Shown: positions 18,807-64,000, numbered from the stretch's first letter. The stretch is 64,000 nucleotides of DNA from Candidatus Woesearchaeota archaeon (GCA_964573625.1 CAZNJU010000001.1:589879-653878); one strand, 5' to 3'. Numbers and translations are program-made. The notes: generated by a model from the letters alone, not told the origin.

Positions 18807-18880
18807 GGGGACATGGTCCAACTTGGTTAGGATTTGCGCATGGGGTGTGCACGGTCCGGGTTCAAATCCCGGTGTTCCCA
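18807..18880 (+). tRNA. tRNA-Pro(GGG)
   Basis: GGGGACA...TGCGC-ATGGGGT-GTGCA...CCGGG-TTCAAAT-CCCGG-TGTTCCC A. Confidence 0.92.
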
Positions 18881-18932
18881 TTAACAGAGAAACCTGATTT
18901 TTCATTCTTTTAAAAATATTAGATTATTCAGA

Positions 18933-19412
18933 TTACTTACTTTTATTTTTTGGAAAGTATAGATCGAAAGATTTACTCATTAAGTAGAAAATAGCTAATA
19001 TACCTGTTACCAAAGGAGCAATTAGTAATAAACCTCCAAGAATCAAATGCCTCGTAAAAAATATTGGAAAGATATTAATTATATTTGCTAAGAGTGCTAA
19101 ACCTGTGGCAATTAATAAAGAAATAAAGGTTACAGTCATTCCTAAGTCATAGGAAAAAGCTTCAAACTTTTTTAGTTTCAAAGAATTTTCCAAAGAACGA
19201 TCATAACCTGCGCGAAACGCAACAATTATAGTATATATGAAGAAAATAAAAAGAGCCGTGGGAAAAAGAGTTTGTGATAAAACAAATAGAACTCCTTCTA
19301 CAGTAAAAACTTCGTATTTAGTCCCCTTAGGAATATATTGTAAAATTCCAAACAACATAGCTAGTAAAACAGCAATTATCGTAAGACGCAAAGTTGTTTT
19401 GTTTTCGCCCAT
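18933..19412 (-). CDS. AT-rich multi-TM hypothetical protein
   Basis: Four hydrophobic segments; lies downstream of tRNA-Pro. Confidence 0.65.
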   Translation of the reverse strand: MGENKTTLRLTIIAVLLAMLFGILQYIPKGTKYEVFTVEGVLFVLSQTLFPTALFIFFIYTIIVAFRAGYDRSLENSLKLKKFEAFSYDLGMTVTFISLLIATGLALLANIINIFPIFFTRHLILGGLLLIAPLVTGILAIFYLMSKSFDLYFPKNKSK

Positions 19413-19516
19413 ATTTATTCTTTTTTAGTCAGTTTAAAAATTTTTATATACTTTAAAAAATAGGAATTCAGTTATATTTCAAACACGTTTAAATAGAATA
19501 CTCTCCATAATTATAG

Positions 19517-27398: not shown

Positions 27399-27761
27399 AT
27401 GGTAAGAGTACCGGACTACATTAAGGCAAGACAGCGATCTCTTGAACAGGTTACTACTGCTCGAAATATGTTTGGATCAGATAATGTTGAAGTTCTCGGT
27501 AGAGACACAATGTATCCATGTCATTTCTTCGTTAAATCTCAAGAAGGACAAGAAGTAGTGAGATTTTATGTAAATCTAGATGATCAGAAGATAGATACCT
27601 TACCAAGAACATACGATTCGGCCAAGAAACTTGCTAGAAAATATGAATCTAAAGACGGGCGTGGTTCATGGAACGTAAAAAGAAATGGTCGTCGTGAAGA
27701 ATTAATTGAGAAAATAAAATTACCAAAGCACGATATACCTAATTGGTCGACTGCGGTTTAA
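27399..27761 (+). CDS. Hypothetical protein inserted in the pilin module
   Basis: Absent from the paralogous module at 63 kb. Confidence 0.6.
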   Translation: MVRVPDYIKARQRSLEQVTTARNMFGSDNVEVLGRDTMYPCHFFVKSQEGQEVVRFYVNLDDQKIDTLPRTYDSAKKLARKYESKDGRGSWNVKRNGRREELIEKIKLPKHDIPNWSTAV

Positions 27762-28552
27762 TTAATCTCGGCACGTGTCTGCCTCAAAAGCTGTTTGAGT
27801 TTCTGCTTAGTGTCATCAATGCCCCTATTCAGCCGTTCTTGCAATTAACACTTAATCTCTTATCAGAACCCATTAATCTTAACCTCTTTGTGAATATGTG
27901 GGTTATTGTCATTTATTGTTTATCGATGTTCTATGCGCTGTTGCTCTTAGCATCTGGCTTTAACTTCATGATTTCAGGTTATGACTCAGCCAAACGAGAG
28001 AACGCAAAGAGCTGGCTCAGAAACGTGGTTATTATGATTGTGCTGGTTCAAGCATCCTTCTTTATCTACCAACTCGCTATTGATTTGTCCGCAAGTGTAA
28101 CCTCTGCTACACTTACCTTAGTTGATCACAATTTCTTTCTCATCACGCTCAACAGTATTTCCGATCTGGGAATGGCGTTACTCTTCGGACTCATTTACAT
28201 CATGACGCTTATTGTAACGTCTTTGGTGTTGGTTATTCGGTATACGTTTGTAGCGATCGGCGTGGTCTTGTTTCCCGTAGCTATTTTCTTTTATTTCATG
28301 CCGCCTCTAAGATCGTATGGCTCGTTGCTCCTTAATTTCTTAGGAAGTGCTATTTTTATCACGGTTATTGATGCAATACTATTAGCCGGCTTCTCGCAAT
28401 TGGTAAACGTGAGTATCTTTGGCAATATGAAAGTAATTGTGCTTATTGCAGCCTTTCTATGTATCAGCGCCTTCATGCTCTTTATTCTCTGCTTTAGTAT
28501 TGTCAAAGCAGGCTTTAGCGTCTATCATGAAGTAAAGAGGTTCAAGTCCTAA
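27743..28552 (+). CDS. Polytopic membrane protein, VirB6/TrbL-like position
   Basis: About 6 TM segments; lies between the pilin and VirB4 genes; TTG start. Confidence 0.65.
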   Translation: MVDCGLINLGTCLPQKLFEFLLSVINAPIQPFLQLTLNLLSEPINLNLFVNMWVIVIYCLSMFYALLLLASGFNFMISGYDSAKRENAKSWLRNVVIMIVLVQASFFIYQLAIDLSASVTSATLTLVDHNFFLITLNSISDLGMALLFGLIYIMTLIVTSLVLVIRYTFVAIGVVLFPVAIFFYFMPPLRSYGSLLLNFLGSAIFITVIDAILLAGFSQLVNVSIFGNMKVIVLIAAFLCISAFMLFILCFSIVKAGFSVYHEVKRFKS

Positions 28553-49095: not shown

Positions 49096-49102
49096 GGTAT
49101 TA

Positions 49103-49158
49103 AAAGGTTTCGTTAGGCAATCTTGGTTTCCAGAGCGAATCCAAGCGAAACCTTTATA
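49103..49158. promoter_or_regulatory. Back-to-back BRE/TATA promoters forming a 10-bp inverted repeat
   Basis: AAAGGTTTCG (49103-49112) and CGAAACCTTT (49146-49155), each continuing into a TATA-like run on its own strand. Confidence 0.6.
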
Positions 49159-49309
49159 TACAATCTCTCCAGTTAAAAAAGTACTTATGGCGGCACAAAA
49201 GCCACACGTACAACCTCCAGATCTACGCGATACTCTTTCTTTATTCGGTTCTGTGTGTCAATATTCCTATATTGGATCAAGCGAATCATAAAAGAGGTGT
49301 TCCTATGGA

Positions 49310-50865: not shown

Positions 50866-52068
50866 TTAGGGAGAGACTGCATGTTCCTTAAGCTTACGAA
50901 CCAGAACTTCGTACACCTCCTTATCATTAATGAGCATATCGAGCATACTATTGATTCCTTTCGTTTCCGCTTCCTTGACTAATATCTCTTGCGCTGCCTC
51001 TTTGTGTAATACGAAGCCACAAACATTACAGAACTTGTTAGTTGTAGGATTAGACTGATGACAGCGTAAGCATGAAAGAGGCTTAAGCTTTGGTTCAATA
51101 ATCGTTTGTGCAGTCGCAATGTTATTCGCACGCAAGATTGCATCATCTGCATCTCTGCCCGACATGTGCACGTAAATGCCTGCCATCTTAGATCCCTGTG
51201 TCCACCCAAAGTAATGCTTCATAGCTGCTTCACTCATAATCTTAGCAAGATGTGTGGCTCTGCTATGTCTAAACAAGTGTGCATGCACATGTTTCTTAAT
51301 GCCTGCGCGTGATGCAGCCAGTTTAATCACATCTACCATACGAGTATAGGTCAAAAAACCGTTAGAGCTTTGCGGATTCCACCAGACCGGTGCTTCAGGA
51401 TCGAAATTCTTCGGATGCACATTAATCCATTGTTGTAAATACGGCGCACTATTAATCACTAATATCTTGCGCATACCGGTTTTACCATTGACAGTAAGGC
51501 GAGCACCATGTTGTTCAAACGAAATATGCTTAATACGCATGGTTCCAATCTCAGAAATCCTGCATCCCGATTCAGCAAGCGACGCAATCAAAGCCTTATT
51601 GCGGAAGGTATCGCACGCTTGTATCATTTGAAGTGATTCTTCTTCAGTTAGCAGCTCTTCAGGCAATTTTCGAGTGCTTTCATGCAGCGCAATAGAAATC
51701 CACTTGACTTCCAACGGATAAACGCCTTTATCAGTGATGCCTCGCATGTACCGATAGAGCTTACGAGTCATAACTTTGAAGCACTTCTTACTTTCAGGAG
51801 CTAAATCTGTCTGTTCAAGATCAGCAATAACGCGTCGTAAGTCCTTCTCAGTCGCATCTCCAAACGGCATGCCCAACATCTTGCTTAATTTTCGTACATC
51901 AAGCAAATACCGTCCAATCTTAGCGACACCAATCCCTTCACTTAGAAGATAATCCTTGAACGCGATAGCCGTTTCTTTATTAATGGGGCTCATATCTATA
52001 GAATTCTTAATGAGTGCAATCTGGCGATCCAGCTGCCCTTTGTAATCGTGTAAGTCTATCGTCATCAT
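50866..52068 (-). CDS. Tyrosine recombinase/integrase with a C-terminal zinc ribbon
   Basis: ESGCRISE, GKTG, HLFRHSR, FGW, IYVH; CLRC..CNVC. Start refined. Confidence 0.92.
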   Translation of the reverse strand: MMTIDLHDYKGQLDRQIALIKNSIDMSPINKETAIAFKDYLLSEGIGVAKIGRYLLDVRKLSKMLGMPFGDATEKDLRRVIADLEQTDLAPESKKCFKVMTRKLYRYMRGITDKGVYPLEVKWISIALHESTRKLPEELLTEEESLQMIQACDTFRNKALIASLAESGCRISEIGTMRIKHISFEQHGARLTVNGKTGMRKILVINSAPYLQQWINVHPKNFDPEAPVWWNPQSSNGFLTYTRMVDVIKLAASRAGIKKHVHAHLFRHSRATHLAKIMSEAAMKHYFGWTQGSKMAGIYVHMSGRDADDAILRANNIATAQTIIEPKLKPLSCLRCHQSNPTTNKFCNVCGFVLHKEAAQEILVKEAETKGINSMLDMLINDKEVYEVLVRKLKEHAVSP

Positions 52069-52140
52069 CGTGTCATGTGATAACGCATCCTCGGTGCTTT
52101 TTATAGCACGATCATCAGACGGGCGTGCAACCAACTCTAA

Positions 52141-52184
52141 ACGCCCGAACCGGGAATCGGACCCGGGTCTCCTGCGCGACAGCG
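52141..52184 (-). pseudogene. 3' half of a tRNA-Asp(GTC): att-site remnant
   Basis: Minus strand CTGTCGC-GCAGG-AGAC-CCGGG-TCCGATT-CCCGG-TTCGGGC-G. No matching 5' half seen; T-loop is degenerate. Confidence 0.8.
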
Positions 52185-52266
52185 CGATACCTCTTGAGGA
52201 ACCTAAGGGACTCGTTAAAAGCAGAGAATAGCAAACTGCTTTTTAAGAAAGCAGCCTTAGAGTCCG

Positions 52267-53418
52267 ATGAAAATAGATCCAAAGAAAAACAAAGAACGCT
52301 ACCTCGGGTGGCAGGAAAGCATCAAGCACGGCATTTCTGACATGAGTAAGGAGAACGCGGATATTCTGTTGCGTTACCTTGCAGACATGCAGTTAGGCGT
52401 TAATATTGCGTCGAAAAGCCCCAAAGGTGCACGAAGTTACGGGCGTTTAAACGATTTAAAAGATAAGATGCGCTTTTTCTCCAAACGATTCAAGGAGCAA
52501 TTAGGTCTTGATCACATTATCGATATTAACGAAGATCAGCTTATCCGTTTCTTCGCAGATATGCGAAACGGGGTATTCAAAAAAGCTGACGGTAGGCCCT
52601 ATACCGGAATAGATACCTTTGGACGCGTGTTCAAAGCGTTTTGGCACTGGCATATGAAATCCAATAAGAAAAAAGGTATTGACATCCCCGATATTACGAT
52701 AGATTTGGATACGCGTGGAGAAAAGCCCGATTGGGTCTATTTAACCGAAGAACAAGTCAAGCATCTGGCAGAGACTGCAAAATACAAGTATAAAGTCCTT
52801 ATTTTGTTCTTATTCGATTCAGGCATACGAGCACCTACGGAATTGGTAAACGTGCGTGTTTCCGATTTATACAATGACTGTAAAGAACTCAATATTCGGG
52901 AAGAATCCGCGAAAACGTTTGGAAGAAGAATAAAGCTTTTACTGTGTTCTGAACTGGTAAAACAATACATCAAAGATAATAATCTCAAGCCTGAAGACCA
53001 ACTCTTTCCGATCAATGCAACGGTTGCCAATAGACAACTCAAGCGATTTGCTAAGCGCATATTCAAAGACGAACCAAGTCCTGCGGGCCAGAGCTATTGG
53101 CAATTAAGCATGTATGATTTCAGGCACTGCTCGTGTTGTTATTGGTTACCTCGCTATAAGTCTGAAAGTGCATTAAAGTATCGCTTCGGCTGGAAAAAAT
53201 CGGACAAGATTCATTATTACTCGGAGTTGTTAGGTATGAAGGATACGATTTCAGAGGAAGATATGCTAATCGATACCACTAAAACTGATATTGAGAAGAG
53301 CCTCCAAAGAGCCGAAAATGAAAAAGCTCTTATGGAAGAAAAGATGCATGCAATGGAGTTACAAATGGCAACCGTTATGGAATTGGTTAAGCAGGTTGGA
53401 AGTTTGAAGAAAGAATAA
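52267..53418 (+). CDS. Second tyrosine recombinase-like integrase (divergent family)
   Basis: DSGIR, KTFG, YDFRH, FGW, HYY; C-terminal coiled coil. Confidence 0.82.
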   Translation: MKIDPKKNKERYLGWQESIKHGISDMSKENADILLRYLADMQLGVNIASKSPKGARSYGRLNDLKDKMRFFSKRFKEQLGLDHIIDINEDQLIRFFADMRNGVFKKADGRPYTGIDTFGRVFKAFWHWHMKSNKKKGIDIPDITIDLDTRGEKPDWVYLTEEQVKHLAETAKYKYKVLILFLFDSGIRAPTELVNVRVSDLYNDCKELNIREESAKTFGRRIKLLLCSELVKQYIKDNNLKPEDQLFPINATVANRQLKRFAKRIFKDEPSPAGQSYWQLSMYDFRHCSCCYWLPRYKSESALKYRFGWKKSDKIHYYSELLGMKDTISEEDMLIDTTKTDIEKSLQRAENEKALMEEKMHAMELQMATVMELVKQVGSLKKE

Positions 53419-53426
53419 ACTTGTCT

Positions 53427-54626
53427 CTATAAATTAATTTTAATAACGCTGGAGCGATTAAGATACGCACGAGTGCGTGGGAAAAAAGATCCGGATTTGA
53501 GATACAATGTCGTAATCTGTGACATGCGTGACTCGCTAAGGGATGGTTCTGCTTCATCACCTGCTTGTGCCAACGTAATTCCATCCATAATAACGCGACG
53601 TATGGGATCACGATAGCGCTCAGGTATAGCGCGTAAATCTCGTTCGAAACAATTCATCAAGTCATTATTCTCACATTCTACAACAGGGTTATCCTTTAAA
53701 GGCGCGGTAACTCTCTCAGATAATTGATAGTCGTTTCTTGAATGCCCATTGCGTTGCTTTCGATCTGCATCAAGACTTGCGATACTTCCACCGCGTATCC
53801 ACACATCACTATAGAAATGTTCAAAGGAATCAATCGGAAGTGCTCGTCGTTCCCACTCAGCATACAAATCTTCTTTAGAGGGAACAATTCCTTGAGATTC
53901 CTTGAACGTATGAGCAAATTTGGAAAATTCATCAAGACGCGTTCGATCTAAACGGGGTAAATGATCGCTTGCACGAATGCCATCTAATATGGCTCCGCGT
54001 ATACGGGGAGCGCAATACGTTTCAAATCGCACATTGCATGCAGGATCATATTTTTCTATCGCATCAAGCAGACCAACATTTCCTTCTCCTATCAAATCCT
54101 CCAAATCAACAAAATCAGGCAATTTAGTGTGCATTCGCTGAGCCACGTCACGTACGATTTTCTGTCCTTCAACCGCAAGTTTACTCCGATAGAGTTGATT
54201 ATGCGTTGTTGCATAGAGGTTTGCCAGATTAGTAAGTCCTTTAGCACCCGTCTCTGGAACACAAATATGAACATCCCCAACGTGAATGTACAAGTCAGGA
54301 ACACCTTCAATCGTATGTTCTTCAACGATTCTTCTTCCATCACGTTCAAGATTAAGTAATCCGTCAAAAGGCGCACCTACCTGCTCAGCAAGGAGATACG
54401 CTGAGACGAGAGGTGTTTGTTCAGGAGGTATATTTGACTGCCGCGATAGTAAATTGGCGACAAGCGCCCCTAAATATCCTTTTTTCTTATCTTGATGTGC
54501 TTGAAAAGAATCATCACGTAACGTCTGCATGAAGGTTCCGTTTAATCCTCGAGCTTTCAAGTCCGCTTCCGAAAGAATCGCGAGTAAGTCTTGCTCAGCT
54601 ATCTCACGATTTGGTCGTTCGCTCAT
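53427..54626 (-). CDS. Sigma-70 family (FliA/WhiG-like) protein with an N-terminal extension
   Basis: Region 2 DLEDLIGEGNVGLLDAIEKYDP..RFETYCAPRIRGAILD; region 4 GITLAQAG..LSESRMSQI. Start refined to MSERP. Confidence 0.85.
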   Translation of the reverse strand: MSERPNREIAEQDLLAILSEADLKARGLNGTFMQTLRDDSFQAHQDKKKGYLGALVANLLSRQSNIPPEQTPLVSAYLLAEQVGAPFDGLLNLERDGRRIVEEHTIEGVPDLYIHVGDVHICVPETGAKGLTNLANLYATTHNQLYRSKLAVEGQKIVRDVAQRMHTKLPDFVDLEDLIGEGNVGLLDAIEKYDPACNVRFETYCAPRIRGAILDGIRASDHLPRLDRTRLDEFSKFAHTFKESQGIVPSKEDLYAEWERRALPIDSFEHFYSDVWIRGGSIASLDADRKQRNGHSRNDYQLSERVTAPLKDNPVVECENNDLMNCFERDLRAIPERYRDPIRRVIMDGITLAQAGDEAEPSLSESRMSQITTLYLKSGSFFPRTRAYLNRSSVIKINL

Positions 54627-56638
54627 AAGCTTCTTTCCGTCCAACTTGATAGACTCTAATAAAATCACCAAACCTAAACCTCACAGGGGTTGATTTATTA
54701 TTAAGAGCAATATTCAATCCTCGTTGCTTGGCAAACCCTAACACTTTGGTGACTTCGTCAATTTTAATGCCGCTTGCTCGTGCAAGTTCAGGAATCGTAT
54801 AGGCTTGATTATATGCCTCAGTAAACGCTTGTTCAGGGTTAGCATCGGATCGCCGCATGTCTACTGCAGGAGAGCGTAACAAAGAATACACGCGATCAAT
54901 ACAGGTCTGTTCAACAACGTAAGCATGATGATCTGTTTTTTCTCCTGCTCGATACACAAACGGTTCAACTTTTTTCCCTACTTGATTAAGAATACCATGG
55001 AATCGTTCCATTACTGTCGTAAGATTAGCAGCTCCACGGGATGAACCATTGGCTTCAGCGAGTTTGTCATGAACCACTTCATAAAGTGTGGTGAATCCAT
55101 GCATCATTTTCTGTGCTTCCAAAAAGTCCTTCCCCAGCACTCCTTCCTCTTGTACATGGAATGCACTTCCTTCAGCCAAATACCGAATAGCACCAAGACC
55201 TTTCTCTGATAAACGTCCGAGATCAGTAAGTTGATACATCACCATCGGATGAATCTCACTTTTCAACGTTTCTCGCTCAGAAGTTGCTTGTAATTGTTCC
55301 CAGAGCTCTCCGCGTCGTTTAAGGAAATCTTGCAACGGGCTTTTTCCGCGCTCAGTATCTTCGAGTGCGAGTGCATCGATAACTGCTCCAATGACGGCTT
55401 GTTCATATCGCGGAACGGTAGTTACGGATGTAGGAACTAACGAAGGATGCTTATTATTGAGATAAATTGCATTTGTATCAGGATAGTGTCTGCCAGGAAT
55501 GATGGCATCAATATCATCTGAAAATTCTACTGATGTATTCTTATCAATACCCTCGACTTTGGCGCGTACTAATTGTGAGAGTGCTTTTTGTGTAATACGA
55601 TTGCGCTGTCCTTGTACTTTGGTAACCATAGAACGCTCGCTCGTATCGCGAGTATATTGTTCAACGACTCCGACGGCCTTTGCAAGAGTCTTTCCGAGTT
55701 CTACAACGCCCGGATGATCTTCTCTAAAGCGTCCACGATCAAAGAGAATTGCTTCCTCGAGACTGTCTGCATGGACAATGCCAATAATGCGGTCTCGCAT
55801 CGATAATCGATCTTGTCTCAAGAACGTTTTAGGATCTCCAATCTTGCGACCATTGACATACACATGTACTCCCGTCATGAGTGCTTTTTTGTTAGTTAAA
55901 TATAAATTACCTCTAATAGAACCCATGTGTTTGCCTTCGGTATCCAGTTTGAAGATGGTGGCACTTTCAATTTGTTTGGATTGTACTGCTTCTCCATTAA
56001 CGTAGACTTTGAAATCAGGAAGCAACGGAAGATCCCATTGAATACGGCGTTTTAATTCAGCAAGCGAGAAATTATCTCCTTCAGCAAATTTAAGGCCCTT
56101 AAGTAATAAACTGGTTCCATGCGCGTTGGGATCGGTTGAAACTTCTCTTCCCATAATAGGCTTATCAGAAGATACGCGCTCTTCAAGCTGTTCATGAATA
56201 ATGGTTTTTCTACCCTCTTGCTCAGTCGTTAACTTATAGCCGTTACATAACGAACGTAAAAGAATCGTTGCAACTCCAAACTTTCCAATGCGCATTCGTC
56301 CCGCCGCGCTAATCGGTTCTTTGATTTTAGGGCTGTCGCCTAATCGATAAAATGATTCAAGACCTTTTTCGGCCGTCATGCCTGAACCATTATCTTTGAG
56401 CCGCAGTGCATCCAATTCAGGACGGTAGTCGATATCAACGCGTGTTGCATCAGCATCGTACGCATTTGCGATTAATTCTTCTAATGCAGGAATAGTACCC
56501 GTTACAACGAGATTGGCAATAAGATCAGGAGCATTGCTTCCGAGATTACGCGTAAATGTTACGTCCCTTTCGCGAGGGGGGGGGGGCGATCAGGGTTTTT
56601 GAATTACTTTGAGCCGCGGAAACCGTAGATTTTGCCAT
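54604..56638 (-). CDS. GHKL (MORC/HATPase_c_3-like) ATPase, frameshifted at a C11 tract near its 5' end
   Basis: ELIANAYDADA, DNGSGM and GKFGVA lie in one frame; the ATG at 56638 joins it only with C10 or C13 (677 aa with C10). Confidence 0.82.
56576..56586 (+). repeat. G11 homopolymer (candidate phase-variation tract)
   Basis: Direct read; lies after codon 17 of the GHKL gene. Confidence 0.9.
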
Positions 56639-56910
56639 GCTAAAAGGTCTTCTTAATGGTTTTTAAGCATTTCTACAATGCTTCTTCTAAACTTTATTCT
56701 TAGTGCGTTGCTCTCACAACTATAATAATTCCAGATAATAGGAAAGCAATGATTGTAACGATATAGATCGAGGGATCGTTAAATCCAGCGAATAGGTTAA
56801 TCAATCCCGTAATTAAACTTACAAAAAAGACAATCCACAGAAGAACATCTAATTTTTTCATGGACACTTAAGAAAGAGTAACTTTATAAATTTCGCCTCT
56901 CTCGAATTAT

Positions 56911-57408
56911 ATGCCTCTCCTGCAACCTCGGAAGATACGCGGTTCGATGGATGATGGGTATTACACTCCTAATGATACGACTGATGCTTTTGCAACAACT
57001 GTGTATCGAGATATTGTTAGCGGACTACCTTTTACGTTTAGGGAAGAGATACGTGATGGAGTGCTTCTAACGAGAACTAAATTTGGTGTTTCAGCAGATA
57101 CGAGTCTTGAATTTTGGATGACGACTTCAGATCGTCGAGAGCAGTTCCCGCTATTTGGAGATGTATGTTTTCACCAGCCTAAATCAGCTATGGATGGGCA
57201 TGCATATCCGTACACGTTTTCAAAAGGCGAACGTTTCGCAGAAATGCTTAGATTAAAAGAACCGCCGTTCTATAGAATTGCTCATTTTACAGATACGCCT
57301 CTTGTCATTACTTCAGAAGCTTCCGATACTGTTCCTCTCGTTATACCCCAACCGCAATCAATGGTTAGATTACATCAGAAATTAAAAGCCCGCGGCGTCA
57401 TGCAATAA
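56911..57408 (+). CDS. Hypothetical protein
   Basis: 165-aa ORF with an upstream TTTATAAA. Confidence 0.6.
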   Translation: MPLLQPRKIRGSMDDGYYTPNDTTDAFATTVYRDIVSGLPFTFREEIRDGVLLTRTKFGVSADTSLEFWMTTSDRREQFPLFGDVCFHQPKSAMDGHAYPYTFSKGERFAEMLRLKEPPFYRIAHFTDTPLVITSEASDTVPLVIPQPQSMVRLHQKLKARGVMQ

Positions 57409-57481
57409 TTGCCAATTTAGTTACTACTCTTAAGATACAATGTATCGAAAAGCTTAAATACCTATTATTTGTAGAGAAAAT

Positions 57482-58219
57482 ATGGCCTTAAACCTCAATG
57501 ATCAGGCAGTACGATTGCCGTATGAAGAATTCTACGGAGAAGTACGAGCACAAATGCCAAAGCTCTTGGCGGACAAGCGTATGCCTCTTTCGGTAGCCGG
57601 TCTTATGGAACGACGCCTCAATTCTACTCAAACCGCTGAATGGAGAGATAATTATTTTGGCATGGGCGATGCCATTGCGTACAAAGGAGATGCTTTCAAA
57701 GTTGTTGCTGATGCACCTCTCTTGAGAGAACTAACTGCAAACACTCGGTTGAAAGCAGGCGCGGTACTGCTTGCCGATGGATTATATGAAACATTTGACG
57801 GCACTGAATTCTCACGTAAGGATTTGTCTAAAGTAATGGGTCGAGATTTGACTGCTGCCGATGCTAAGAAACATCCCGTCTGGCAAGCGCTTGCTCGCGG
57901 TGATCAAGGATTACTTGATGCTTATACGGATATGACGTTTGCTGATACAAAAGCTCGTTTTGGTTACACTGAAAACATGGGTGTTTATCTCGATGACTCG
58001 AAAGAACCACATGCACGGGCTTGGTTTGTCGGCAGGGCGTACTACAGGTCGCAGGCCAGTGGCGACTGTGATCTTGACTACAGGAGCGGTCGCTTGGTCG
58101 GGGTAGCGCCGGAGGCGCTCAGTGCGCCGGGTAAGGCTATTGTAATGCCTTCCCTTGAAACTGCATTGACTGTTGTGAACCAACATATAGGAAACAAATT
58201 GAAATTGCAACAGCAATAA
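57482..58219 (+). CDS. DGR target (variable) protein, probably CLec-fold
   Basis: Contains the VR (RAWFVGRAYYRSQASGDCDLDYRSGRLVGV) followed by 37 more codons. The fold is inferred from other DGR targets. Confidence 0.9.
   Translation: MALNLNDQAVRLPYEEFYGEVRAQMPKLLADKRMPLSVAGLMERRLNSTQTAEWRDNYFGMGDAIAYKGDAFKVVADAPLLRELTANTRLKAGAVLLADGLYETFDGTEFSRKDLSKVMGRDLTAADAKKHPVWQALARGDQGLLDAYTDMTFADTKARFGYTENMGVYLDDSKEPHARAWFVGRAYYRSQASGDCDLDYRSGRLVGVAPEALSAPGKAIVMPSLETALTVVNQHIGNKLKLQQQ
58017..58107 (+). repeat. DGR variable region (VR)
   Basis: Matches 58943-59032 except 13 substitutions, all at TR adenines, and one 1-nt indel. Confidence 0.95.
58105..58119 (+). promoter_or_regulatory. DGR target-recognition hairpin AGCGCC-GGA-GGCGCT
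   Basis: Perfect 6-bp stem with a GRA loop immediately after the VR. Confidence 0.8.
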
Positions 58220-58738
58220 ATGAATTCTAACGAAGAAGCACTTAGATTATTTTATCTAGACCATCTCTTTACTAAGTCAACAAAAAATGTAGAACCTATC
58301 TCTTTGGAATTCCTTTCTTCTACTTTCAATGAACTATCTGAAAGAGTTTTTTCTATGTCTTTTGAAGACATCTTAAAACAGATTCGTCTTTCTGAGACTT
58401 TAACTTTTTGGTCGTGTGCTTATTTGAACAAAAATTGTACTCAGATTGAACTTCCTATAGAAAAAGCATGTGCGGATGATAGACATATAGCCATAGATAG
58501 CCATCTTGTTTCTCAAGGGACTCTTTTATCAAGCCTCTTGGAAAAAGCATATCTCTTATCTGAATTGCGTGAAAGGATTGATTTTCCTAAAAAGTTTTCT
58601 CCATTTTTCTTAGATGAAGCATTCCCCATAGTACGAAAGTACGGAGAGTTATATGAGGTTTTAATGGGTAATCATCGAGTCATGGCTGCAATTGAACTTG
58701 GTCTAGAAAAAATTAAAGCGATATGTTTAGAAGAATAA
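58220..58738 (+). CDS. ParB/Srx-like domain protein within the DGR
   Basis: C-terminal PIVRKYGELYEVLMGNHRVMAAIELG motif; abuts the target stop codon. Confidence 0.65.
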   Translation: MNSNEEALRLFYLDHLFTKSTKNVEPISLEFLSSTFNELSERVFSMSFEDILKQIRLSETLTFWSCAYLNKNCTQIELPIEKACADDRHIAIDSHLVSQGTLLSSLLEKAYLLSELRERIDFPKKFSPFFLDEAFPIVRKYGELYEVLMGNHRVMAAIELGLEKIKAICLEE

Positions 58739-58812
58739 TCTTTTTTCAACATACATAATTGAGTATCATCTATCTTTTATAGCTCATTTCTAAACTCTTC
58801 TATCCTAGCTAA

Positions 58813-59034
58813 CTATGCAACAAGGATGCATAGAGTATCTGGGGCTACACGTCCTTTCATGACGGCGCTTCGGCGTCATAAAATACAGCTGCAACAGAAA
58901 TGAAGCGGCAGTGAAGGGGTATCCATGAAAGGGCTATTCCTGGGGCTTGGTTTGTCAACAGGGCGAACAACAGGTCGCAGGCCAATGGCAACAATAATCT
59001 TGACAACAGGAACGGTCGCTTGGTCGAATAGCCC
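58813..59034 (+). ncRNA. Putative DGR template RNA: structured leader plus TR
   Basis: Stems at 58813-58819/58827-58833, 58851-58861/58924-58934 and 58931-58939/59026-59034; a cUUCGg hairpin near 58870. Boundaries are approximate. Confidence 0.65.
58943..59032 (+). repeat. DGR template repeat (TR)
   Basis: AAC/AAT-rich copy of the VR. Confidence 0.95.
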
Positions 59035-60520
59035 ATGATGCTGCTAGGATATCATACTATGTACGAACAACTGTGCTCAGAAGAAAATCTTCTTAGTGCA
59101 TTTTACAAAGCGCGGAAAGGCAAGACACAGCGACATTATGTGCAAGTATTTGAAAAAGAGCTAGATAAAAATCTAAAGCAGCTAGAACAGGAGTTACGTA
59201 CTCAGACCTATCAACCTAAGCCCCTAACAACATTTGTTATTCGTGATCCAAAGACGCGTAAAATTTCTAAATCTCGATTCAGAGATCGAGTAGTACATCA
59301 CGCACTCATTAATGTTATCGGCCCCGTTCTACAAAAACGCTTTATTTATGATTCACATGCGAATCAGGTTGGTAAAGGAACGTTAAAAGCAGTTCAACGT
59401 TTCGAGCTCTTTAAACGAAAAGTGTCTCGTAATAATACTCGTCCCTGTTACGTGCTTAAATCAGACATTAGGCATTATTTTGAAGAAGTCGATCATGCTA
59501 TTCTTCTCAAGCTTATTAGTAAATATGTTCGAGACGAGCGCGTGATGTGGCTCATTCAACAGATTCTCGCTAACAATGTACATCTTTCCTTTAATGCGAA
59601 CTTTAGGACGCAGAGAGAGAGAGAGTACTAACAAGGGAATGCCCTTAGGCAATCATACTTCACAGTTCTTTGCGAATGTCTATCTGAATGAACTAGATCA
59701 ATTTGCAAAACACGTTCTTAAAGCACCGTATTACTTACGATACGTTGACGATTTTGCCATTTTATCTAACTCGTATTCAATGCTTCTACAGTACAAGGAA
59801 CGCATCAATGTGTTTCTAAAAGAGCATCTTAAACTTGAATTGCATCCTCAAAAATCTCATATTCTCTCGTTACATTCGGGCGTTTCTTTTCTTGGGTATC
59901 GCATTTTTCCGCATCACAAACTATTACGAAAACGTAACGCGCGTGCGTTTGAACGAAAGATGGGAAAATTGAGAGTTTTATACCACGAAAAGCAAGTTTC
60001 ACGAGATCAAGTGGTTGATCGACTTCAAGGATGGTTGGCTTATGCCGAACACGCCGATACGTACACTTATCGAAAAGAAATATTACGAAACTTTAATCGG
60101 TTTTTTCCCTTTAAAATAGAAAAAGCACTGTTGTCCAAAAGAGCGAGAAATTTCTATAAAAAAGTAGCTGCAAGTAAAATACAAGGAAGCGTTCAAAAAA
60201 CGCTCGACCTAGCAAGAAAAAAGATGTCAGTCACAGAAATAGCTACGCTTCGTAAAATAAAAGAAGGAACGGTCTGGGAACATTATGCAGAATTAATTGA
60301 ATACGGATGGTTGTCTATTTGGTCTATTCTTCCGCGTAAAACTATTGTAACGGTTTTACCCTATATACGAAACTCAAGTGATACTCTCACAACAATAAAG
60401 AGTCGGTTAAAAGTAAGCGGCATATCTTATGATAGTATTATGTGCGTTCGCGCCCATATACGATACAAGGAAAAAATAAAACGATGGTCAAGACGATATC
60501 ACAAAAATTATTTGGGATAA
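59035..60520 (+). CDS. DGR reverse transcriptase, split by a frameshift at (AG)7, with a C-terminal HTH
   Basis: Frame 1: RDPKTRKI, FRDRVVHHA, KSDIRHYF. Frame 2: GMPLGNHTSQFFANVYL, RYVDDF, FLGY. (AG)8 gives one 495-aa ORF. Confidence 0.93.
59612..59625 (+). repeat. (AG)7 dinucleotide tract at the RT frameshift
   Basis: Direct read CAGAGAGAGAGAGAGTACTAA. Confidence 0.92.
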
Positions 60521-63229: not shown

Positions 63230-63619
63230 ATGAATAAACTCCTTATAGCAGGGATAGTCGCGTGGAGTCTGGCTCTTGCGTGTGCGGAGCCAGCTCTCGC
63301 ATGCCCTTCCCGTATTTATTGCTCCAACTTTACTGATCCGATGAAGCGAACTGATTGTAATACCATCGTTTCGCAGCATTTTCCGTTTGAAGAACAACAT
63401 GAAATACTCTGTACCCTATGGGACTATGGGTACGAATGGCGGGGCTACGAACCGCCGCACTACCCTCCGTTAAACACGAGTCTTGTGTTATCGTATAAAG
63501 AAATAGATACGAGTCGGTTCCTCACCGCTATGAAAATAACTACTTTTATTGTATTCAATTATTTTCTTTATTGTTTTCTCACTCGCTCTTCCTTTACAAC
63601 GAGATGGCGTGCAGCTTAG
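63230..63619 (+). CDS. Membrane protein of the second pilin module
   Basis: Paralog of 26949-27338. Confidence 0.75.
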   Translation: MNKLLIAGIVAWSLALACAEPALACPSRIYCSNFTDPMKRTDCNTIVSQHFPFEEQHEILCTLWDYGYEWRGYEPPHYPPLNTSLVLSYKEIDTSRFLTAMKITTFIVFNYFLYCFLTRSSFTTRWRAA

Positions 63620-64000
63620 TTAATCTCGGCTCGTGTCTGCCGCAGATGTTCTTTGAGTTCGTACTCGGAATCATTAACGCACCGATTCAGCCGTTTCTGC
63701 AGCTCACGCTCCATTTGCTATCAGAACCAATCAATCTACACCTGTTCATGCACTTTTGGGCGATTATTGTGTACATGCTATCGATGTTCTACGCACTATT
63801 GCTCGTGTCTGCAGGGTTTAGCATGATGCTCGCAGGCCCCGATGTAGAAAAACGAGAGAAATCGAAAGAGTGGCTCAAAAACGTCGTGATTATGATTATT
63901 CTTGTGCAAGCATCGTTCTTTATTTATCAGCTTATCTTAGACCTAGCGGCAGCCATGACCTCTGCTACACTAACGCTTGTCGATGGTAATTTCTTCCTCA
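63604..64000 (+). CDS. VirB6-like polytopic membrane protein, second copy (truncated by the window end)
   Basis: MACSLVNLGSCLPQMFFEF..INAPIQPFLQLTL matches 27743-28552. Confidence 0.8.
   Translation, partial: MACSLVNLGSCLPQMFFEFVLGIINAPIQPFLQLTLHLLSEPINLHLFMHFWAIIVYMLSMFYALLLVSAGFSMMLAGPDVEKREKSKEWLKNVVIMIILVQASFFIYQLILDLAAAMTSATLTLVDGNFFL

Follow-up and report, generated by a model that had tools for sequence, protein, structure and literature searches.

A homopolymeric tract near the 5′ end of a gene encoding a GHKL ATPase in a DPANN archaeon is best explained, with a probability of roughly 60%, as a slipped-strand phase-variable switch that heritably turns the ATPase ON and OFF, with a probable polar effect on the overlapping gene for a sigma-70-like protein. 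In the window (the whole stretch of DNA that was analyzed, 64,000 nt in length) the gene is in its truncated OFF form, and the same strain carries an intact ON form in a second public sample. The slipped-strand mechanism is a textbook means of bet-hedging in bacteria, and what is new here is the lineage of the host and the target. For archaea, and above all for the uncultivated DPANN episymbionts, hardly anything has been charted of the existence and targets of phase variation. A 2025 review describes how such loci are distributed across archaea as an open question (PMC11868660), and our literature search found no description of phase variation in DPANN. The locus offers a concrete and checkable case, since public data for one strain contain the ON allele in one sample and the OFF allele in another. 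Its features are the following:

56576–56586, G11 on the plus strand and C11 on the coding minus strand: poly-C tract, at its OFF length in the window
56546–56638, minus strand: OFF-state product, starting at ATG 56638, with 30 codons followed by TAA
54604–56589, minus strand: main part of the GHKL ATPase, read when the tract is C10 or C13 (677 or 678 aa from ATG 56638)
56639–56679, minus strand: upstream block of 41 nt that abuts the ATG, 100% identical to the ortholog with 79% nucleotide identity
53427–54626, minus strand: sigma-70-family gene, 399 aa, FliA/WhiG-like, extended at the N-terminus by about 130 aa

The Poly-C Tract and the Reading Frame of the ATPase Gene

With the C11 tract of the window, the frame that opens at ATG 56638 is translated to MAKSTVSAAQSNSKTLIAPPPSRKGRNIYA (30 aa) and then stops. 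When a series of tract lengths was translated in silico, C10 gave an ORF of 677 aa and C13 an ORF of 678 aa, both ending at 54604; C9, C11 and C12 were all out of frame and gave products of 25–30 aa. Unit changes between C9 and C13 toggle the gene in silico between an intact and a truncated form, as is expected of a phase-variable locus. The initial annotation of this DNA had placed a G11 tract here and had proposed that C11 leads to a stop and that C10 or C13 restores the gene, and both its translation and its frame logic proved correct. The tract is placed 17 codons past ATG 56638, and the proline run that it encodes occupies residues 19–21 of a 21-residue leader. Contingency tracts classically sit a few codons into the ORF, and the earlier remark that a position so near the 5′ end resembles that of contingency loci holds for a tract 17 codons from the start in a leader predicted to be disordered.

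In the long frame, a TGA (56592–56590) stands one codon 5′ of the tract, with TCG between them, and the first ATG, GTG or TTG is TTG 56415 (residue 75). A start at this TTG would delete the N-box (E54, N58 and D61), and therefore the ATP-binding N-box is not rescued by any in-frame start. TTG 56415 and Met87 were both considered as the native start and rejected, because both drop the invariant N-box and because orthologs use the upstream ATG.

The number of G and C runs in the 64-kb window drops about 5–6-fold with each extra base. The tract apart, G and C runs in the 64 kb reach at most 6 nt, and only about 0.0009 runs of at least 11 are expected over this length. C11 is longer than the composition of the window predicts, which is a property of phase-variable loci, and the tract is not attributable to chance. 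CCC is the least used proline codon here (13%).

Start Codon, Promoter and Orthologs

The assignment of ATG 56638 as the putative native start is supported because the ortholog with 86% amino acid identity uses this ATG, because the 41-nt upstream block is fully conserved and because distant orthologs also have an N-terminal leader. Farther upstream of 56679, the sequences of the window and of the ortholog are unrelated. Within the 41-nt block, GCTTAAAAAC is found at −30 to −21, and similar A/T boxes (gcttaaaaaa and ccttaaaaac) precede the distant orthologs on contigs L008 and L174. We infer from these features that the block is an archaeal promoter of the TATA/BRE type, from which a leaderless or near-leaderless (short-leader) mRNA would be transcribed.

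A search with the intact protein returned 57 relatives, and those with a named source come mostly from Woesearchaeota, Nanoarchaeota or Pacearchaeota. The nearest ortholog (P0002; 677 aa, 86% amino acid and 79% nucleotide identity) is represented by four contigs and has the same ATG and the same MAKS...SNSKTLIAPP leader. Its tract, which begins at the corresponding codon, is C9, and a 1-nt difference beyond it compensates so that the gene stays in frame: the distance from the tract to a conserved GTAAC is 14 nt in P0002 versus 13 nt in the window. The predicted ON length is thereby 9 in the P0002 lineage and 10 here, the tract having been kept and the downstream frame reset. Presence of the tract in orthologs at a variable length, another property of phase-variable loci, was found in this one lineage (four contigs), and, taken alone, the survival of a nine-base tract at 79% identity has only weak significance (about 0.1). 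Orthologs that lack the tract and use a downstream start had been named beforehand as an outcome that would speak against a switch, and the nearest ortholog, with its C9 and its shared ATG, is not of this kind. All four contigs of the P0002 lineage are ON, but they were retrieved via the intact protein, which creates a bias against OFF alleles. An exact-sequence look-up of the sigma partner, as a route to OFF alleles in either lineage, returned no contigs beyond those known.

Orthologs with at most 52% identity have a leader that is similar in length and not conserved, without prolines and without the tract; the proline run is therefore not needed by the protein. An ortholog with 60% identity (L173) falls outside the comparison of tracts, as it is cut by the end of its contig. 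Protein-guided scans of metagenome and genome contigs recovered relatives with at most 44% identity, mostly bacterial GHKL domains, and no additional ortholog that bears the tract. In the leader of a distant ortholog (P0011, 39–40% identity), a T8 run (GTTGTTTTTTTTAG; 6031–6045 of L008) occupies codons 10–13, at about the same position. This run may be a coincidence in a genome of 33% GC or a second, independent homopolymer at the site.

Tract Length in Different Samples of One Strain

Five public runs contain the sequence, and these were compared as assembled Logan contigs. X1 (107x) and X2 (26x) are two wastewater samples of one study that were assembled independently. The X1 contig (13,409 nt) is the same as the window and has G11 (OFF), and the X2 contig (13,978 nt) has one G fewer at 56576, which yields G10 (ON). 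Between 29607 and 64000, the main-strain contigs of X1 and X2 display 0 substitutions and 0 further indels relative to the window, and the A9 run and all 7-nt runs in this region have the same length in both samples. Between 4001 and 29600, the listed main contigs are without differences; this region is fragmented and contains strain variants in both samples. In X3–X5, the organism or a relative is present at 2–4x, and the tract is spanned by no contig. A search for RNA runs returned none.

The 90% protein cluster of the gene consists of three gene calls, of 603, 677 and 591 aa. The 603-aa call comes from the X1 contig (OFF). The 677-aa call (P0058) comes from the X2 contig (L005, SRR16481183) and is identical to the product predicted for C10, exactly as the initial annotation had forecast; when L005 was compared directly with 52153–59637 of the window, it was C10 and identical in all else. 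The 591-aa call comes from a 760,348-bp NCBI contig, where the gene call is truncated, and this assembly is presumably out of frame as well (as judged from the 591-aa protein record). Exact DNA-pattern scans of metagenome and genome contigs for the 5′ flank of the tract gave no match. In one strain, then, the OFF allele is the consensus in one sample and the ON allele in another. Isogenic populations with differing repeat numbers are expected at a phase-variable locus, and G11 in X1 and G10 in X2 present this at the contig level; a uniform G10, which had been put forward as the result that would speak against a switch, was not observed.

The two lengths could be produced by sequencing or assembly from a single true length, most likely the intact C10, if stutter and the path chosen by the assembler gave G11 in one case and G10 in the other. 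Long G/C homopolymers are error-prone, and in PCR-based Illumina libraries no context gives more errors than those of 10–11 nt. Moreover, an assembler outputs one path and contigs lose minor variants, and the depth of X2 is modest. However, stutter from library preparation shifts only a minority of the reads at such tracts by ±1 and does not flip the majority; where the majorities differ, the dominant alleles must differ too. G11 is also the consensus at the 107x depth of X1, the truncated 591-aa call is found in the separate 760-kb NCBI assembly, and no other homopolymer in the compared stretch, A9 included, differs between assemblies. On this evidence, an artefact is unlikely.

The polymorphism could instead be real without being a switch, in which case C11 would be a one-way loss of function at a mutational hotspot, that is, a pseudogene in the making that spreads through one sample. 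Genes do decay in this island, as the RT gene of the neighboring diversity-generating retroelement (DGR) is frameshifted and invariant between the samples. Against decay of the ATPase gene, the remaining 2-kb ORF of the OFF allele is fully intact and matches that of the ON allele without a difference, and a ±1 change at C10–11 is reversible by nature. In addition, the ortholog with 79% nucleotide identity keeps the tract with its ON length reset, which hardly fits a deleterious hotspot that point substitutions could readily have broken up. We regard a one-way loss as distinctly unlikely.

A further explanation is recoding, by which C11 would be functional through a +1 ribosomal shift on CCC-CCC-CCC-C, with tRNA-Pro slipping at a poly-proline stall, or through slippage of RNA polymerase; the full GHKL protein would then arise with the DNA unaltered. 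It is known that tRNA-Pro can slip by +1 on CCC-C runs and that RNA polymerase slips on long homopolymers, and a gene for tRNA-Pro(GGG) is present at 18807–18880. Because this strain also has an in-frame C10 allele and the C9 ortholog is in frame as well, however, a frameshift is not a conserved requirement of this gene as it would be under programmed recoding, which leaves recoding highly improbable as an account of the locus. The OFF state may plausibly be somewhat leaky.

The GHKL ATPase

The intact product matches Pfam HATPase_c_3 (6e-12, 46 bits versus a cut-off of 25), and residues N58, D82, G84 and G86 are invariant in 28 homologs. A PDB profile search returned MORC2/3 and MutL. The best family match in NCBIfam is to restriction enzymes of the BbrUII/HgiDII type (71 bits, residues 52–222), and MutL and, weakly, MzaB are also matched. 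The AlphaFold (AF2) model has a pLDDT of 85; residues 1–21, including the PPP, are below 50 (disordered), and the fold starts at residue 24. Foldseek matched this model to the N-terminal and middle domains of Hsp90/TRAP1, MORC2 and MutL with a probability of 1.0, with low TM-scores over the whole chain (0.2–0.3), the proteins being comparable in the N-terminal half only. In the predicted layout, a Bergerat ATP-binding fold comes first, then a transducer-like domain and lastly a C-terminal region of helices. Neither a nuclease nor another effector domain was recognized in the protein, and its C-terminal 350 aa are without a family match. By its domain matches, invariant residues and modeled fold, the protein is assigned to the MORC/MutL/Hsp90 branch of the GHKL ATPases; the proposal of a GHKL/MORC-like ATPase is one on which Pfam, the PDB profile and Foldseek agree.

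A Two-Gene Module With a Sigma-70-Like Partner

The partner gene matches Pfam Sigma70_r2 and the WhiG/FliA family of NCBIfam (2e-34, 119 bits), and its ATG overlaps the stop of the GHKL gene by 23 nt. This overlap makes it probable that expression of the GHKL ATPase and of the sigma-like protein is coupled. The pair of a GHKL gene and an overlapping sigma gene is present on L001, L002, L005–L008, L173 and L174, and it was found on every ortholog contig examined that is long enough except L009, in surroundings that are very different. Its members are a GHKL protein of about 630–690 aa and then an overlapping FliA/WhiG-like sigma-70 protein of about 400 aa. As judged from gene order on these contigs, the GHKL–sigma pair is a conserved two-gene module, and a predicted operon, of DPANN archaea. 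At ortholog loci, the pair lies beside TrbC/VirB4-like genes and an MT-A70 methylase.

Sigma-70 proteins have been reported in DPANN Woesearchaeota, for which neither an anti-sigma factor nor a control mechanism was found (Castelle et al., 2021, PMC8204110). The gene downstream of the ATPase encodes a protein of this kind, and the GHKL ATPase is a candidate for the partner or regulator that had been missing for the sigma-like proteins of DPANN.

The Neighboring Retroelement and the Genomic Setting

A retroelement neighbors the ATPase gene:

57482–60520: DGR, with VR at 58017–58100, RT-16 RNA at 58803–58942, TR at 58943–59026 and RT at 59035–60520

The 84-nt repeat pair of the DGR is 87% identical, and all 11 mismatches (11/11) have an A in the RT-proximal TR versus another base in the VR. 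The VR is at the 3′ end of a 245-aa ORF, and the Rfam match to RT-16 RNA (72 bits) is directly upstream of the TR. The repeat (AG)7 at 59612–59625 breaks the RT, for which (AG)8 would give 495 aa and (AG)5 would give 493 aa. The initial annotation had described this repeat, too, as a switch that is OFF here; the repeat exists and does break the gene, but X1 and X2 share the same VR and the same (AG)7, each homogeneous within both samples, which provides no evidence of switching and is consistent with an inactive DGR.

Besides the retroelement, the surroundings of the locus contain tyrosine recombinases, an MT-A70 methylase and T4SS-like genes, and the window also encodes an archaeal-type TIM and class I aldolase together with GroEL. 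The presence of sigma-70 and GroEL suggested a bacterial (CPR) origin, which was rejected in view of the GHKL homologs that are named as Woesearchaeota, Nanoarchaeota and Pacearchaeota. The archaeal-type TIM and aldolase and a tRNA match of 157 nt also argue against it, and both GroEL and sigma-70 are known DPANN acquisitions. The DPANN (Woesearchaeota-like) host proposed earlier is plausible from the GHKL homologs and the archaeal-type genes. The tRNA match, from Rfam, spans the 157 nt of 210–366 for a model of 71 nt and has no ARAGORN call; it is probably an intron-containing tRNA, which would fit an archaeal host.

The window also contains several signs of mobile or duplicated DNA. The Logan contigs of X1 and X2 both break at 49099–49165 and at 52141–52182, and the 3-kb piece between these segments carries a tyrosine integrase (50866–52134). 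The segment 49099–49165 also ends another contig of equal depth (3,223 nt), and 52141–52182 corresponds to a contig of 42 nt whose depth is about 1.5x; a small mobile element may have its repeat or att-like boundaries at these two segments. Part of a T4SS-like cluster is present as a diverged duplicate (27752–28142 and 63610–64000; 69–79% identity over 300 + 43 nt), which points to the start of a second conjugation-like module at the end of the window. Strain-variant bubbles, at about one-third of the depth, are frequent in 4–29.6 kb and nearly absent in 29.6–64 kb in both samples, and the latter region assembles into few long identical contigs. The right-hand 34 kb, with the VirB4-like gene, an SNF2 helicase, recombinases, the GHKL–sigma pair and the DGR, may have a different and more recent history, for instance as an integrated element. 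At 18842–19488, a depth-33 contig of X1 omits 645 nt beside tRNA-Pro and has a 40-nt sequence instead, which constitutes a structural variant at a tRNA-adjacent site.

Proposed Mechanism and Implications

In the slipped-strand switch that we favor for the ATPase gene, the hypermutable homopolymer would gain or lose single C:G pairs by slipped-strand mispairing during replication. C10, and also C13 or C7, would give the full GHKL ATPase, and C11 would give the 30-aa peptide without the ATP-binding domain. Switching would be reversible and would occur at a high rate. The OFF state would probably also lower expression of the sigma-like partner, because the GHKL gene is the first of the putative two-gene operon and the second ORF overlaps it by 23 nt. 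The initial annotation had the whole island controlled by phase variation, a scope that was too wide: the tract can act on the GHKL gene and, probably, on the overlapping sigma-like gene only. The role of such a switch could be adaptive bet-hedging, and the GHKL/sigma pair could have a DNA-targeting, defense-like or regulatory function.

If the switch is upheld at the read level, the locus would offer a natural genetic means of studying what the GHKL ATPase and the sigma-like protein do, with ON and OFF populations that can be compared. It would also mean that metagenome annotation pipelines mis-call such genes as truncated, as with the 591- and 603-aa calls here. A more far-reaching proposal, which we put forward as doubtful, is that the tract truly works as a heritable ON/OFF switch, that the gene under it encodes the partner so far missing for the DPANN sigma-70-like proteins, and that by toggling the GHKL ATPase and, via translational coupling, the sigma-like factor, the tract splits a clonal population into two states. 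If true, these could be transcriptional states or states of defense and DNA surveillance, and the locus would correspond, in an archaeon, to the phasevarions of bacteria or to phase-variable defense. A sigma module of the bacterial type would then have been exapted in a genome-reduced archaeon without bacterial RNA polymerase.

Comparison With Known Systems

The bacterial poly-G/C contingency loci (in Campylobacter, Neisseria, Haemophilus and Helicobacter, restriction-modification and defense genes among them) resemble this locus in having a G/C homopolymer of 9–11 nt a few codons into the ORF and a frame switch caused by ±1 nt. They are also alike in the length alleles that distinguish populations of one strain, in the retention of the tract in an ortholog and in a target that lies in a mobile or defense-like neighborhood. 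In contrast to these loci, the host here is a wastewater DPANN archaeon and not a host-adapted bacterial pathogen, and the target is a cytoplasmic GHKL ATPase, probably coupled to a sigma-70-like protein, instead of a surface or R-M gene. A further difference is that the 64 kb contain a single tract of this kind.

To our knowledge, MzaAB is the only described pairing of a sigma-family protein with a MutL-like GHKL protein. In the anti-phage system MzaABCDE, the sigma-70-family protein MzaA is paired with the GHKL/MutL-like ATPase MzaB (PMC9523054). The locus shares this domain pairing and gives weak matches to MzaA (28–30 bits) and MzaB (18 bits). These scores are far under the curated cut-offs (800 for MzaA and 850 for MzaB), the partner is better described as FliA/WhiG (119 bits), and gene order and sizes differ from those of Mza. 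Neighbors resembling MzaC (Z1), MzaD or MzaE (AIPR) were not found, the neighboring ORFs being without PADLOC matches of that kind. Membership in the Mza system was ruled out by the sub-threshold scores and the absence of MzaC–E, and the resemblance is treated as an analogy only.

With the prokaryotic MORC/paraMORC proteins, the R-M-associated GHKL ATPases such as the N-terminal domain of BbrUII/HgiDII-family restriction enzymes, eukaryotic MORC2, MutL and Hsp90, the ATPase shares the Bergerat fold, the N-box, DxGxG and a transducer-like second domain. The GHKL anti-sigma serine kinases of the SpoIIAB/RsbW type are small HATPase_c proteins of about 150 aa that bind their cognate group-3 sigma factors, and the gene next to the ATPase encodes a group-3-like sigma protein. 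Compared with these kinases, the protein described here is 677 aa long and of the HATPase_c_3/MORC type, and its best 50 structural matches are Hsp90, MORC and MutL. Finally, what distinguishes this locus from the sigma-70 proteins reported in DPANN (PMC8204110) is that a large, overlapping GHKL gene precedes the sigma-like gene and, in this lineage, carries a frame-switching tract.
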